Positions 1,714-13,433 of a DNA stretch of 13,433 nt are shown here, piece by piece. A program made the position numbers and the translations under genes. The notes beneath the pieces are model-generated. The model did not search any database, was not told where the DNA came from, and saw only the letters and a list, made by a program, of their open reading frames with translations. Positions within the stretch are counted from its first letter, which is position 1, and each line of letters begins with the position of its first letter. Origin of the DNA: Promethearchaeota archaeon (lineage in GTDB: Archaea; Asgardarchaeota; Lokiarchaeia; Sigyniarchaeales; SOKP01); the NCBI GenBank assembly GCA_048941015.1, contig JBHLNZ010000077.1:1-13433 (forward strand), given 5' to 3'.

Positions 1714-2313
1714 TCATATTTTTAACATAAGATTCAATTTTATTAGACTAATTACTGAAGAAGCTAAAAATGATTGGTATCCTAAACTTAAATTGGGTAG
1801 ATCTAATTCTTTCAATTCGGGTGATTCTATAAATTCACCACTTTGACTCCCTATCACGAAAACAACATTATTTCTTGAAAGAATCTCTACTTTATATTTA
1901 AAAAAATCTTCGCCACTTTCATTAAGAATATATATATTATATCCTTGCTCTCTCTTTAACTTTATTGCATCAATAATATTTATATCTCTATGTTCAATTG
2001 AGTTTAAAGGATTAACTTGCTTATTATTTCTGACTTGCCCTTCCTTTATTAACTTAACAAAATAATCGGTTAGAAGAATTTCATTTTTAGGAAATAACTG
2101 ATAATCTAATGAATTTGGATCAAAGATATATGTTCCATACTTTTCTAAAAAAGTCCAAATTTGAAAGTCTCTCTCGAATCCACCATCCTTTATTAAAGCA
2201 GATATTATGCACCTAGAAATTACATCAAATCTGCCGGAACTACCCGGAATATCTTTGATATTATACTTATCGATATTTACCGTGTTAGAATTAATGAAGA
2301 AGATAATAGTCAT
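1714..2313 (-). CDS. trmY: tRNA (pseudouridine54-N1)-methyltransferase, SPOUT family
   Basis: DIPGSSGRFDVISRC matches the TrmY D(L/I)PGSxGRxD motif. C-terminal SPOUT knot LNESG...FVIGSQSG...LSLG. Confidence 0.85.
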   Translation of the reverse strand: MTIIFFINSNTVNIDKYNIKDIPGSSGRFDVISRCIISALIKDGGFERDFQIWTFLEKYGTYIFDPNSLDYQLFPKNEILLTDYFVKLIKEGQVRNNKQVNPLNSIEHRDINIIDAIKLKREQGYNIYILNESGEDFFKYKVEILSRNNVVFVIGSQSGEFIESPELKELDLPNLSLGYQSFLASSVISLIKLNLMLKI

Positions 2314-7694: not shown

Positions 7695-8431
7695 AAGTTA
7701 ATAATTTAAATTTTAGTTATAATTCAACTTTTCAGATTAAAAACATGTCATTACATGTTGAAGAGAATTCCGTCTATGCTCTAACAGGAAATAACGGATC
7801 AGGTAAAACTACGCTATTAAGACTTTTAGTAGGATTATTGAAGCCAAACTCAGGACAAATTAAAGTATTCAATGAACTACTCACTCGAAATAAAAAACAA
7901 TTATGGAGAATTAGACAGAAAATAGGATTTTTATTTCAAAATCCAGATGATCAACTTTTTGCTCCAACTATTGAAGAAGATATAGCATTCGGGGCAAGAA
8001 ATCTGAAGTTTAATGAAAATGAAGTAAAAAGTAGATTGATGTGGGCTTTAAATGCTGTAGATTTAACCGAATTTAAACATTTTTCTCCATTTGACCTTTC
8101 ATGGGGTCAGAAGAAGAGAGCTGCTTTAGCTGGTTTATTAGTAATGAAACCAAAATTATTAATTTTGGATGAACCTTTCGCTAATCTGGATTTTAAATCG
8201 ATATACAATCATCTAGAAATCTTTGAAAAATTAAGAAAGGAAAATAATATGACTATATTATTTACAACTCATAATATCTTTTTTGTAGAAAATTGGGCAC
8301 ATAGGATGCTTTTTCTTCATAACGGTGAAAAAATATATGAAGGATCTCCTAAAGAAGGACTGAAGAATCCACTTGTTATGAATTTAGTTGGATCCTATAA
8401 TGACTTTTTAGATTTATTAAATAAATCTTAA
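7679..8431 (+). CDS. ECF transporter ATPase (NikO/CbiO family); true start probably ATT/CTG at 7679-7687 rather than ATG 7745
   Basis: GNNGSGKTT, FQNPDDQLF, LSWGQKKR and LDEP motifs. The in-frame upstream extension IILAVEVNNLNFSY is the usual first strand of ABC ATPases. SD AAGGAGGT at 7665-7672. Confidence 0.92.
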   Translation: MILAVEVNNLNFSYNSTFQIKNMSLHVEENSVYALTGNNGSGKTTLLRLLVGLLKPNSGQIKVFNELLTRNKKQLWRIRQKIGFLFQNPDDQLFAPTIEEDIAFGARNLKFNENEVKSRLMWALNAVDLTEFKHFSPFDLSWGQKKRAALAGLLVMKPKLLILDEPFANLDFKSIYNHLEIFEKLRKENNMTILFTTHNIFFVENWAHRMLFLHNGEKIYEGSPKEGLKNPLVMNLVGSYNDFLDLLNKS

Positions 8432-8512
8432 AATGAAAATCTATAAATATAAATTAGACAAAATAATGATTAAATTTTTTAGCTTAATGATTTTATTATA
8501 ATTTGGGAAATA

Positions 8513-8589
8513 ATGATGGAAATTTAGCATTCTCGAGGGCACATATGATAACAAATGATTATGTGTGCAAAATAATGCAGACATCCTGA
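8513..8589 (+). ncRNA. H/ACA guide RNA hairpin 1 nested within a box C/D K-turn; predicted 23S Psi2496 guide
   Basis: Lower stem GCATT 8527-8531/AATGC 8574-8578. Pocket CTCGAGG/GCAAAAT. Upper stem GCACATA/TATGTGT, then U.U and tandem GA.GA K-loop. ACA at 8581-8583, exactly 14 nt from the upper stem. Flanked by ATGATGG(A) 8513-8520 and (TC)CTGA 8584-8589. Confidence 0.8.
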
Positions 8590-8610
8590 ATTTAATAATC
8601 AAAAAATCCA

Positions 8611-8690
8611 CTACCCATAAAATGGGCTCTTGACTAAGCAATGGTATCTTCCACTGCAATGAAGTATGAGTCAGTACCCTTGGGCAGAAA
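8611..8690 (+). ncRNA. Candidate H/ACA-like hairpin 2 with a non-standard K-turn
   Basis: Lower stem CTACCCA/TGGGCAG, pocket TAAAATG/AGTACCCT, upper stem GGCTC/GAGTC. K-turn-like ACT-AA-[GCAATGG/CCACTGC]-AAT-GA-AGT. ANA-type AAA lies 15 nt from the upper stem. Confidence 0.5.
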
Positions 8691-8723
8691 TGATTATTTA
8701 CCCATAAAAGCATAGAAATTAAC

Positions 8724-8802
8724 GCCTAACACGAGAGAACTTTTTTGATATTTATGGTAAATCCTTGATATGATAAAAAAGTGTTAGTGTTTTTAGGCAA
8801 CA
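8724..8802 (+). ncRNA. Candidate H/ACA hairpin 3
   Basis: Lower stem GCCTAA 8724-8729/TTAGGC 8793-8798, followed by A-ACA (8800-8802). Upper stem ACTTTTTT/AAAAAAGT capped by a TGA...TGAT tandem GA motif. Confidence 0.6.
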
Positions 8803-8848
8803 ATATATGCCAAATAAAGAAAGATTCTATTATACTACAGAAAATATA

Positions 8849-9319
8849 TCATAGAAGACTGATACTATCTGAACTAAAAAGTTCCTTTAATTCCTTATTA
8901 ATCTCCCCTTTATCTTCTTGAAGATAACGATTCAATATTGTACTTATTCTTGAAGCATATTTTTTCATTAAAGCTCTTACATAACCAATCTGTACATTTT
9001 TATCTGTTGCAATGCACAAAACTCCTTTACCAACTTTTACAGAAAATATCATTCCCTTGAAATATTCTGTAATTTGAAGATCAATATCACCATAGCCTAA
9101 AATATGGCCCTGTTCTTCCCCAGCAGTAAAAACAGCTCCTCCAATCGCACCAATTTTTTCTACAGAGATGTCTTCTTCATTTTTAAAAGTAAATTTAGCT
9201 TCACTCATAATAGTTATTCCTGTATCATCAATAATAATAGCATATTTCAACCCAGGTGTACTATTGATAATATCACTTAATATTTTTTTCAATCTGTGTT
9301 CATCTTGTGAATAACTCAA
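8849..9319 (-). CDS. Roadblock/LC7 (MglB-like) domain protein
   Basis: TPGLKYAIIIDDTGITI, helix VEKIGAIGGAVF, and strands QITEYFKGMIFSVKVGKGVLCIAT, followed by NVQIGYVR; TTG start. Confidence 0.85.
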   Translation of the reverse strand: MSYSQDEHRLKKILSDIINSTPGLKYAIIIDDTGITIMSEAKFTFKNEEDISVEKIGAIGGAVFTAGEEQGHILGYGDIDLQITEYFKGMIFSVKVGKGVLCIATDKNVQIGYVRALMKKYASRISTILNRYLQEDKGEINKELKELFSSDSISLL

Positions 9320-10070: not shown

Positions 10071-11039
10071 TTATTCCTTTTTTTTTAATTTAATTCCGAG
10101 GTCTAAATTTTCAATTAATTCGGAGAAGCGATTTCTAACTGTCACTTCTGTAACTTGACTTATTTTAGCAATTTTTCTTTGTGTTCTTCTCTCTTTTGTA
10201 AGTAAAGAAGCAGCATAAATTGCTGCTGCACAAACTCCTGTTGGACCTCTTCCAGAAGTTAAACCCCTATCTTCAGCCATTTTAATAACTTTTTTTGCCA
10301 TTTTATGGCATTCAGGAGACAATTCTAATTCGGAAATAAATCTTGTTAAAAAATCTAGTGGTTTTGTAGGATTCAGGTTTAGGAGTAATTCCTTGGAAAT
10401 GAAGCGAAATGAACGTCCTATTTCTTTTTTATTTACTCGTGCAACTTCTGCAATTTCGTTAAGAGTCCTTGGAACTTTATACATTCTACATGCTGCATAA
10501 AGACTAGCCGCAGCAACCCCTTCAATTGATCTTCCTCTAATTAAATGGGCCTCAACCGCGTCCCTATAAATTTTTGCTGAACACTCCCTTAAATTTTTTT
10601 GGAGATCTAAATTAGAAGCCATGCGATCTAATTCACTAAGAGCAAATGTTAAATTTCTTTCAGTAGCATCTGAAACTCTAATTCTGCTCTGCCATTTTCT
10701 TAATCGATATATTTGACCCCTTAATTTCGCGGGTATCTCTTTTCCAAATATATCTCGATTTTTCCAATCAATCATTGTACTTAATCCTTTATCATGAATC
10801 ATATAAGTCATTGGAGCACCCGTTCTTGTTCTTTTTTTCTTCTGATCAGCATCAAATGCACGCCATTCAGGACCGTGGTCAATATGATTTTCGGAATGAA
10901 CTAAACCACATTCCTCACAAACCAATAATCCTCTATTTTCATCATGTAATATACTTTTACCGCATTCGGTACAGATATTACTCTCCAAATTTCGCTTCTC
11001 TTTAATGATGGTTTTAGTTTCATTCCAGCTCGAAATCAT
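10071..11039 (-). CDS. tfb: Transcription initiation factor IIB
   Basis: Zn ribbon CTEC...CEECG, B-reader [17 protein letters not shown], and two cyclin repeats ([23 protein letters not shown]). Confidence 0.98.
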
Positions 11040-11086: not shown

Positions 11087-11335
11087 TTATTTCATTTTAG
11101 CATATAATTTTAAGTTTGAGTCAATTTGAATTTTAGATATGTTTTTTATAGAGATAAAAGGAAATTTTACGGGACCAAAAATCTCTTTAATATATCCAAT
11201 TTCTTTATATTCTTCTGTAAATACTGATTTGTTAAGGATTTTTTCTAGGTTTTTATTCCATCTTTTGGCTCTAAATATTTCATGCTTTTTTGATTCCCCG
11301 AGATAGAAAAAATCTAACTTAACCCAATTTAACAA
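11087..11335 (-). CDS. gar1: H/ACA RNP component Gar1/Naf1
   Basis: IGYIKEIFGPVKFPFISIK matches the Gar1 motif G(K/x)VxDxFGPVxxPY. Sits directly upstream of tfb, the conserved archaeal arrangement. Confidence 0.88.
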   Translation of the reverse strand: MLNWVKLDFFYLGESKKHEIFRAKRWNKNLEKILNKSVFTEEYKEIGYIKEIFGPVKFPFISIKNISKIQIDSNLKLYAKMK

Positions 11336-11614: not shown

Positions 11615-12712
11615 TTAATGGTATTTTTTTTGTAAATGATATAAAATTTTGCAATCACATTTAGCAGAATCCTTTATCTTCTGAATATGGGTAATATCTT
11701 GAGAAAGAACATAATTTTTTAGTCCTGTAATCATATTTTCATTACAATCTCTTTTCAAACAATTATGAATACCTCTTTTACTTCCTGCTCCTGAAGGATC
11801 AGATATAATTCTTGCATTTTTTATTCCTTTGATATCGCTGTTCGCTTTTATCAGACATTTAAATAACGAATAAAACCAAGGAGGGCGGTATCTATTTTGA
11901 AGCCATAAAAGTTCTACTAGTGTATCCTTTTGAATATTCGTAGGATTAATAGAAATAGTATCAACCTTTAAATCAATAAGTTTTTCAATTGAATTAAGGC
12001 AATCATCTATAGCCGCATATTCATTAAGAAATGGAGGTTTAAATAATAAATAGACTCTTATCCCAAATTTTAACTCTTTACAAATCTGAACTGTTTTTAA
12101 AAAATCTTTATATAATAATCCTTTATTTATATATTGATTTCTTATTTTATCATTGACAGTTTCAAGTCCAATTGCTATTTCAATATATTTATTTTTAATT
12201 AGATTCTGCATTGCTTCTAATTTTGCTTTTGAAATATATTCAGGTCTTGATTCCACAACAATTTCTTTTATTTTATCGATATTTGCAACTTTTTTATAGA
12301 TTTTTTCTCTAATTTGTTCTGAAATTTCATTATCATCAAAAAAGCTTCCCGAATTAAATATTTTCAATACATAATCCTCTTGATCTGAGTTAATTTGTTC
12401 TAATTTCGATTGAAGTACAAATTCAAATTGTTTTAAAATATTTTCGTGATCGATATCTTGTAAATAAGAATCGTTTATATATCCACACATAGAACACCCC
12501 CCTTTTTCACTTAAAGCCCAACTACATCCTTTTGTTCTTAATACAATTGCCAATTCTTTCCCTTTACCATTTAAAAGACGATCCTCTTTTATCCAAAAAC
12601 TAACAGGTCTATCTAAAGGAGGAATTGATTTCTTTCTCTTTTTATCCGTTGATTTTTTTCTTAAATATTTTACTTTCTCAACTAAAAGGTTCTCATCATT
12701 TAAGTTTTTCAT
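11615..12712 (-). CDS. Archaeosine biosynthesis radical SAM protein RaSEA (start may be 12712 or 12742)
   Basis: LRTKGCSWA...GGCSMCGY variant cluster motif, KIFNSGSFFD, VESRPEY, IGLET, YRPPW and RGIHNC; adjacent to ArcS. Confidence 0.92.
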   Translation of the reverse strand: MKNLNDENLLVEKVKYLRKKSTDKKRKKSIPPLDRPVSFWIKEDRLLNGKGKELAIVLRTKGCSWALSEKGGCSMCGYINDSYLQDIDHENILKQFEFVLQSKLEQINSDQEDYVLKIFNSGSFFDDNEISEQIREKIYKKVANIDKIKEIVVESRPEYISKAKLEAMQNLIKNKYIEIAIGLETVNDKIRNQYINKGLLYKDFLKTVQICKELKFGIRVYLLFKPPFLNEYAAIDDCLNSIEKLIDLKVDTISINPTNIQKDTLVELLWLQNRYRPPWFYSLFKCLIKANSDIKGIKNARIISDPSGAGSKRGIHNCLKRDCNENMITGLKNYVLSQDITHIQKIKDSAKCDCKILYHLQKKYH

Positions 12713-13433
12713 ATATTTCAGCAATCTTTCCTGATTGTGCATTTTTTATATAATTCGACCCTACTAACATCTTTACAACAGCTATAATTTTCTTTCTGCT
12801 CTTGTTTAATACGAAGGCATAATTATTTGGAATAAGATCAAGACTATAATCTATTATTCCAGGGCGAAATAATGTATTTCCACTGATTTCATCTCCATCG
12901 AATATTAAGCTATTCGAAAAATTATCAAATTGATAAATAATATTCGCCCCATTTAAACTCAATTCAATTTGTCCAATATCTTTCAAAAATCTTCCCAGAA
13001 ATTTATTTGTTGATTGTTCATATATTTCTAAACTTGAATCATTTCTAGTTCTTCTCATTATGATTCTATTTTTAGTAAACTTCATTCCATAACCTTTTCC
13101 AAACTGATAATCAATCACTTTTACAATCTTTCTATGCCATGATTTTAAAAAATCCTTATTTTTTGGAAAATATTCTTTTGGTATAAAACGATCTTTATAT
13201 TTTTCTATCAGACTCTTAAGGGAATCTAAAGAATTGCTGGAAGTGAGGTTTCTATCAACCTTAGTAAAAATTATATCATTTTTGACGTTATGTATAACCT
13301 TATTAATAACTTTTAGGTATCCATCCTCTTCAAAATGGCAAATAATTGGAATTTTAATATCGTATTTTTTAATTATTTCAATTAGCATATTCGCTGCAAT
13401 ATCTATTTCTTCTTCATTCCAATCACCTGTCAC
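12696..13433 (-). CDS. arcS: Archaeosine synthase ArcS, C-terminal part with PUA domain (5' end outside the window)
   Basis: VTGDW motif at the window edge, DYQFG motif, and PUA-like NTLFRPGII...IAVVKMLV; immediately upstream of RaSEA. Confidence 0.82.
   Translation of the reverse strand: MTGDWNEEEIDIAANMLIEIIKKYDIKIPIICHFEEDGYLKVINKVIHNVKNDIIFTKVDRNLTSSNSLDSLKSLIEKYKDRFIPKEYFPKNKDFLKSWHRKIVKVIDYQFGKGYGMKFTKNRIIMRRTRNDSSLEIYEQSTNKFLGRFLKDIGQIELSLNGANIIYQFDNFSNSLIFDGDEISGNTLFRPGIIDYSLDLIPNNYAFVLNKSRKKIIAVVKMLVGSNYIKNAQSGKIAEIYEKLK

Follow-up and report, generated by a model that had tools for sequence, protein, structure and literature searches.

The hairpin at 8527-8583 on the plus strand of the window (the whole stretch of Asgard DNA that was analysed, 13,433 nt) is a real, strongly conserved H/ACA-type structured RNA, and it is motif 1 of an RNA of ~310 nt with three hairpins, located at about 8505-8811 (+). 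We consider it likely, though with less confidence than we have in the RNA itself, that this hairpin guides pseudouridylation of the uridine in 23S rRNA that is equivalent to position 2496, by the whole of the mechanism described below. Its structure, conservation, covariation, complementarity to rRNA and partner genes were observed directly in the genomes, and from these we infer that the RNA would be transcribed, assembled into an RNP and used for the formation of pseudouridine. By direct reading, folding and conservation with covariation, hairpin 1 was divided into the following parts.

8527-8583, + strand, H/ACA motif 1 as a whole
8527-8531 (GCAUU) with 8574-8578 (AAUGC), + strand, lower stem of 5 bp
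8532-8538 (CUCGAGG) and 8567-8573 (GCAAAAU), + strand, 5' arm and 3' arm of the pocket (7+7 nt)
8539-8545 (GCACAUA) with 8560-8566 (UAUGUGU), + strand, upper stem, with G.U as its bottom pair
8546-8559, + strand, K-loop, with U8546.U8559, G8547.A8558 and A8548.G8557
8581-8583, + strand, ACA box, 14 nt 3' of the upper stem and pocket top

The H/ACA architecture that the sequence-only reading had proposed for these positions was confirmed by direct reading and by the fold, since the minimum-free-energy structure from ViennaRNA (-16.9 kcal/mol, z = -2.41) reproduces the lower stem, the pocket and the upper stem, with the non-canonical pairs of the K-loop drawn as ordinary ones. The motif has what defines the H/ACA class, namely a hairpin of lower stem, pocket and upper stem, and an ANA box 14-15 nt from the pocket top. 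The same reading had given the upper stem 7 bp; seven pairs can indeed be read in this genome, but the bottom pair is open in 7 of 21 sequences of the genus and is thus optional, so that the conserved stem has only 6 bp. This matches the published rule (PMC2377435, PMC7991803) by which the L7Ae-type K-turn or K-loop of an archaeal H/ACA RNA is separated from the pocket by 5-6 bp. Here U.U and the tandem G.A/A.G come after six conserved Watson-Crick pairs, with the seventh pair as an option at the bottom, and the K-loop is the predicted L7Ae site.

The shape of such a hairpin says little by itself. A loose H/ACA descriptor found 19 hairpins in this genome (3.6 Mb, 29% G+C) and 25-31 in random genomes, which were first-order Markov sequences scanned with the same descriptor; the shape is hence not enriched, and architecture alone was dropped as evidence. 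Hairpin 1 is lifted above chance by its conservation, its covariation and its rRNA match, which is the best among the 19 descriptor hairpins of the genome. The sole other convincing H/ACA-like candidate of the scan (contig C50:80321-80381, +) is G+C-rich; it has a lower stem of 9 bp and a pocket, its apical loop contains GA...GA, and an ACA lies 14 nt from the upper stem. Against rRNA it reaches no more than a weak match (3+5 bp).

The region of hairpin 1 was found by BLAST at 72-80% identity in 21 of the 24 genomes of the genus, and a covariance model of the hairpin and its flanks matched 93 of 101 genomes of the family, with a single full-length match in all of the matching genomes but two (G009 and G083). 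A broader covariance model gave matches in eight further Asgard families; in family f2 of the same order, the model search found the family-type hairpin in only 1 of 14 genomes. Within the genus, 96% of the alignment cells of hairpin 1 form pairs, compared with 26-45% when the partners are slid, and double changes occur in six pairs, the upper stem having them in four of its seven. The sequence-only reading had proposed a covariance model search of related genomes for compensatory changes, and these were found: across the phylum they are present in 18 of 19 pairs, and the observed score was reached by none of 500 shuffles, in an alignment that was fitted to the model and is thereby biased toward structure. 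The ACA is invariant in the genus and becomes AUA or AAA in other families, and in some lineages a true K-turn replaces the K-loop. Moreover, no aligned copy departs from the guide sequence CGAGG, and only L138, the weakest match (26 bits), departs from GCA of the 3' arm, where it reads GGU, while the pocket bases outside the rRNA pairing vary among relatives. Conserved guide bases beside variable unpaired bases are the pattern expected of a guide.

Two observations concern copy number. In one genome (G018) the hairpin 1 model also matched weakly (27 bits, E about 4.5e-4) at a second place, L009:2722-2827 (+), some 1.1 kb away from the main RNA; this match carries a C-like box, a D-like box and other pocket bases, and it may be a further K-turn-clamped hairpin, or noise. 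In the genome G009, each of two short contigs (C124 and C465) carries the RNA in nearly the same sequence, and these two copies probably reflect strain heterogeneity in the bin rather than a true duplication.

The pocket of hairpin 1 matches the peptidyl-transferase region of the host 23S rRNA, which reads GGCUUGC-U-U-CCUCGAUG and has the target core CUUGC-U-U-CCUCGA. The sequence-only reading had given the target as UUUGCUACCUCGA (5'-UUUGC-U-A-CCUCGA-3'), and this is not the sequence that the host carries. It had also claimed that both arms pair, and this stands for the 5' arm, where UCGAGG:CCUCGA forms 6 bp, but the 5 bp assigned to GCAAA of the 3' arm are really 4 bp (GCAA:UUGC); the pairing of hairpin 1 with 23S rRNA is of 4+6 bp with UU left unpaired. 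The position to which it pointed was right, and the alignment of the pocket to the host 23S, which it had suggested as a check, gave a single best rRNA site at the 2496 equivalent: the target U aligns with E. coli C2496, and the site is the unique best match in 16S plus 23S (score 26, next best 14). With shuffled arms, a score of 26 was attained in 20 of 3000 trials. The 23S gene of the host is split over two contig ends (C10:1-1447 and C58:128483-129963), between which about positions 1365-1753 of the 23S model are missing, and no 16S gene was found in this assembly. Relative to E. coli, the host 23S has about 29 extra bases after position 2530.

The target sequence is invariant in all the Loki relatives that were checked, and it reads CUUGCU(U/A)CCUCGA in three other Asgard families with readable upstream 23S, so that covariation between guide and target gives no information. 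In some copies the fifth base of the 3' arm is G (GCAAG) and pairs with the C of CUUGC to make 5 bp, and some genera have GCAU, which forms only 3 bp and then a U.U mismatch, though their 23S is unchanged. The conserved fifth A of the 3' arm faces a C, and pairing does not account for it. Natural H/ACA guides work with no fewer than 3 bp on each side and 8 bp altogether (PMC6800473), and 4+6 bp is therefore within the natural range; in Pyrococcus, the 3' guide was found to be more important than the 5' guide. In another Asgard genome (L142; contig C57 of G180, ~1312-1325) the 23S directly 5' of CUCGAUGUCGG is unrelated (AUCAUCAUACACCUU), which points to an intron or an insertion exactly where the target is predicted.

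In the mechanism that we propose, the K-loop of hairpin 1 would be bound by L7Ae, and the lower stem and ACA by Cbf5-Nop10-Gar1. The open pocket would pair with 5'-UUGC-UU-CCUCGA-3' of 23S rRNA through GCAA:UUGC on the 3' arm and UCGAGG:CCUCGA on the 5' arm, and the first unpaired U would be converted into pseudouridine by Cbf5; this U aligns with E. coli C2496 and lies next to the peptidyl-transferase centre, in the base of helix 89. The predicted substrate sequence of the Cbf5-Nop10-Gar1-L7Ae-hairpin 1 particle is GGCUUGCUUCCUCGAUG. The base of the hairpin would be clamped by a box C/D-type K-turn and a short helix, so that the ACA box would come to lie within an internal loop. Genes for Cbf5 (427.8 bits), for Nop10 (47.3 bits) and for two proteins of the L7Ae family are present in the genome, and a candidate for the remaining protein is found in the window itself.

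11087-11335, - strand, Gar1-like ORF of 82 aa (Pfam PF04410, 28.3 bits, E 1.5e-6)

Its score falls just below the curated cut-off of PF04410 (29.3 bits); the ORF lies ~2.5 kb from the RNA and is likely its protein partner. Genes for RNA modification are clustered in the window (1714-2313, 10071-11039, 11087-11335, 11615-12742 and 12696-13433, all on the minus strand) and include an RNA methyltransferase with PF04013 that is presumably TrmY-like, a gene of the radical-SAM type and an ArcS-like gene with DUF5591/PUA/TGT_C2, and the Gar1-like ORF directly adjoins tfb.

Hairpin 1 does not stand alone. Its conservation runs on through two further H/ACA-type hairpins, and the conserved stretch reaches from a TATA-like block at 8470-8483 through GGG at 8505 and the hairpins to about 8811.

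8470-8483, + strand, candidate archaeal BRE/TATA promoter (TTAAATTTTTTAGC), the most conserved upstream block in 22 sequences of the genus
8611-8690, + strand, H/ACA motif 2 (family alignment, helices 2-5)
8611-8617 with 8681-8687, + strand, lower stem of motif 2
8625-8629 with 8668-8672, and 8632-8635 with 8663-8666, + strand, inner stems of motif 2
8656-8657 (GC), 8658-8660 (bulge AAU) and 8661-8662 (GA), opposite 8636-8637 (AA) and 8638-8639 (GC), + strand, K-turn of motif 2
8688-8690 (AAA), + strand, ANA box of motif 2
8724-8802, + strand, H/ACA motif 3 (family alignment, helices 7-10)
8724-8729 with 8793-8798, + strand, lower stem of motif 3, with the extension 8730-8732 (CAC) with 8787-8789 (GUG)
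8733-8739 (GAGAGAA) and 8782-8786 (UGUUA), + strand, 5' arm and 3' arm of motif 3
8740-8746 with 8775-8781, + strand, upper stem of motif 3
8747-8774, + strand, apex of motif 3, with a GA...UGAU K-loop-type element and an apical hairpin
8800-8802 (ACA), + strand, ACA box of motif 3

The block at 8470-8483 is probably an archaeal BRE/TATA promoter, lying ~25 nt upstream of GGG at 8505, which is the likely transcript start. The RNA probably ends shortly after UAUGC at 8806-8810; relatives carry GAUUUU at this point, and the window has no clear T-run there. Hairpins 2 and 3 together with the helices around them are paired in 91% of cells among 32 sequences of the family, compared with at most 43% when slid, and double changes occur at 18 pairs; in the lower stem of motif 2, compensatory changes were seen in 3 of 4 pairs.

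Canonical pocket scans and RNAcofold found no clear rRNA site for hairpins 2 and 3. For hairpin 2 we tentatively suggest the CUGGGU region of 23S rRNA (E. coli 2579-2584, beside U2585/U2586), to which the 3' arm of the family, ACCCAG, is complementary. Its complementarity to the A-loop strand GCCCAUU was rejected for its wrong topology; the A-loop U2555 position is U in this genome and A in the relative G017. The host itself has ACCCUU in the 3' arm of hairpin 2 in place of the consensus ACCCAG, and its 23S reads GGGUUCAGACC, compared with GGGUUUAGA(C/A)C in relatives and E. coli, with a C at the U2586 position (C58, L003:1984-3464, -). The two differences could be connected with each other, or could be noise of the assembly. 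The best fit of hairpin 3, a weak one, is on the 3' side of 23S helix 69: a canonical fit fails on U1915 and on U1917 of this helix, and only UAAC-UC-UCUU (E. coli about 1921, 4+4 bp) suits the invariant bases of the hairpin.

All three hairpins sit inside an outer clamp helix of their own, and that of hairpin 1 has the form of a K-turn.

8508-8520, + strand, 5' half of the K-turn clamp: C-stem AAAU 8508-8511, bulge AAU 8512-8514 and GAUGGA 8515-8520, the last being the box C-like AUGAUGGA
8584-8593, + strand, 3' half of the K-turn clamp: UCC 8584-8586, U8587, GA 8588-8589 and AUUU 8590-8593, with the box D-like CUGA at 8586-8589
8596-8601 (UAAUCA) with 8691-8696 (UGAUUA), + strand, clamp 2, around hairpin 2 (32 family sequences)
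8710-8714 (GCAUA) with 8806-8810 (UAUGC), + strand, clamp 3, around hairpin 3 (family alignment, helix 6)

Clamp 1, formed by AUGAUGGA/UCCUGA with AAAU/AUUU, is a box C/D-type K-turn whose pairs covary. In the genus, 8508-8511/8590-8593 and 8518-8520/8584-8586 are 99-100% paired, and the pair 8511-8590 varies from U-A through U.G to C-G; phylum-wide, 6 of the 7 pairs have compensatory changes, and the K-turn was seen in matches from families across the phylum. Clamp 2 is paired in 96% of cells among the 32 family sequences, mostly with U-A to U.G variation and with one compensatory change, from C-G to U-A. In five sequences both the 5' strand of clamp 3 and the consensus 3' UAUGC are missing, and this joint loss indicates that the two strands act together. 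No C'/D' boxes and no conserved antisense element were found around the K-turn of hairpin 1, and we thus take the clamp for a structural L7Ae site rather than for a guide of methylation. The ACA of hairpin 1 runs directly into a helix, whereas solved RNPs have a free tail at this point. That the outer clamps are a functional novelty of Asgard H/ACA RNAs, with a nested composite RNP, seems to us doubtful, but if this were true, the K-turn of clamp 1 would recruit a second L7Ae, and possibly Nop5-fibrillarin, at the foot of the H/ACA module, and the ACA box would lie inside an internal loop of a composite particle reminiscent of the eukaryotic C/D-H/ACA scaRNAs. Eukaryotic composite scaRNAs such as U85 hold H/ACA and box C/D elements in one transcript.

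Guides for what is probably the corresponding position are known from other organisms. Muller et al. 2008 showed that motif 1 of Pab40 guides Psi2588 of P. abyssi 23S rRNA, positive in CMCT mapping and strong in vitro, and placed 2588 among the sites conserved in eukaryotes (PMC2377435); helix 89 of P. abyssi carries four Psi (PMC2377435). In T. kodakarensis, the equivalent Psi2592 was lost in cbf5, nop10 and gar1 deletions (Fujikane et al. 2018, PMC6138745). In yeast, Psi2865 sits in helix 89 (bioRxiv 10.1101/2021.06.02.446812), snR46 is listed among the guides for pseudouridylation of the peptidyl-transferase centre (PMC1766470), and the offset from yeast to E. coli numbering is 369 at Um2921/2552 and U2953/2584 (PMC2584109). 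By numbering offsets and membership of helix 89, P. abyssi 2588 would correspond to E. coli 2496 and to yeast 2865, because the offset between P. abyssi and yeast is constant, four Psi fall in helix 89 of P. abyssi, the yeast-to-E. coli offset is 369 and Psi2865 is in helix 89. The constant offset is 277, if P. abyssi 2549, 2588, 2603 and 2698 are set against what we take to be the yeast list, Psi2826, 2865, 2880 and 2975. On this numbering, the site would be the same position as yeast Psi2865, guided by snR46, as the sequence-only reading had said. In the Loki sequence, Us are present at -3, 0 and +15 around the target.

Pab40, Pho40, Pf7, Tko1 and Afu-4 (HgcG, RF00064; Thermococcales, Archaeoglobus), the closest known RNAs, likewise have three H/ACA motifs per transcript; their K-turn or K-loop is set off from the pocket by 5-6 bp, their ANA box lies at 14-15 nt, and their motif 1 is aimed at a U of helix 89 and the peptidyl-transferase region that would correspond to the present one. 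Moreover, for motif 2 of Pf7 and Afu-4 the proposed site (the E. coli 2586 region) agrees with the tentative target of hairpin 2. The Asgard RNA differs from this group in that it is AT-rich, every motif is clamped, and clamp 1 is a box C/D-type K-turn; we know of no description of outer clamps for Pab40. The RF00064 model gave no match in the window or in the whole genome, neither at the gathering score of 77 bits nor at E <= 10, and hence the Asgard RNA is not filed as a member of RF00064. An Rfam scan found no credible family at gathering score, nor at E <= 10 on 8400-8900; a line for snoZ122 (18.5 bits) was dismissed as noise. The Asgard RNA would be a functional and architectural counterpart of Pab40, by homology or by analogy, in a comparison drawn from layout and target rather than from the Pab40 sequence.

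Other guides share single traits with it. Yeast snR46 (25S Psi2865) addresses the same rRNA position by numbering, the two RNAs being set side by side by target and architecture rather than by sequence, and it differs as a eukaryotic two-hairpin snoRNA that has no K-turn and uses Nhp2 instead of L7Ae. Pab21/Pf1 with snoR9 (RF00065) likewise joins H/ACA and box C/D, with L7Ae-type K-turns in both, but in Pab21 the two units follow one another and the C/D unit does guide methylation, whereas in the Asgard RNA the C/D-type K-turn is nested around the hairpin. Haloferax volcanii sR-h45, which has two stem-loops and directs Psi1940, Psi1942 and Psi2605, is likewise a multi-hairpin RNA and is aimed at helix 69 and the 2585/2586 region, comparable to the tentative targets of hairpins 3 and 2; no 2496-equivalent guide motif is attributed to it in the compared literature.

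These comparisons bear on what else hairpin 1 could be. It might be a real H/ACA-type module that acts as a chaperone in assembly or folding of the 23S peptidyl-transferase centre, or as a guide for another RNA, without pseudouridine at the 2496-equivalent U. The short 3' guide (3-5 bp) with its conserved non-pairing A, the unusual outer clamps and the lack of a canonical target fit for hairpins 2 and 3 all suit such a role, which we nevertheless hold to be improbable, because the geometry is canonical (unpaired U-N, ACA at 14 nt, 6-bp upper stem), the Thermococcales pseudouridylate what is probably the equivalent site in a guide-dependent manner, and the conserved guide bases fit no other rRNA site. 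Much less probable is a box C/D guide for 2'-O-methylation in which the hairpin is merely an internal structural insert: C'/D' boxes are absent, the 12 nt upstream of box D consist of the 3' strand of the lower stem and the ACA, which covary and are not constant, and the invariant single-stranded elements are the pocket arms instead, all of which outweighs the covarying K-turn formed by AUGAUGGA, CUGA and the terminal stem.

We give hardly any credence to a chance hairpin, to a 3' UTR or terminator element of the upstream cbiO gene, or to a part of the minus-strand ORF at 8441-8713. Look-alike hairpins are equally frequent in random sequence, and the ORF, of 90 codons, does overlap the site, but these readings do not agree with the phylum-wide compensatory changes, nor with an RNA that is single-copy in nearly all matching genomes and has its own conserved promoter-like upstream block. 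The ORF itself has no Pfam match and was rejected, as the open frames of relatives are at most 62 codons long and vary in frame and strand.

We thus retain the reading of hairpin 1 as a guide for the 2496-equivalent U. The sequence-only reading had seen an evolutionarily notable site shared by Asgard archaea and eukaryotes; what is probably the same pair of guide and site is already proven in Pyrococcus and Thermococcus, so that the pair would be common to euryarchaeal and Asgard lineages, and hence not an Asgard-eukaryote novelty. Its occurrence in both Thermococcales and Asgard would support the older view of an ancient site in the lineage of archaea and eukaryotes. The literature searched gave no account of H/ACA RNAs from Asgard archaea, and the present RNA adds an uncatalogued guide RNA to Asgard annotation, with the K-turn and helix clamps as its sole unusual feature. 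In the ribosome of these archaea, the base of helix 89, adjoining the peptidyl-transferase centre, is where a pseudouridine is predicted from it.
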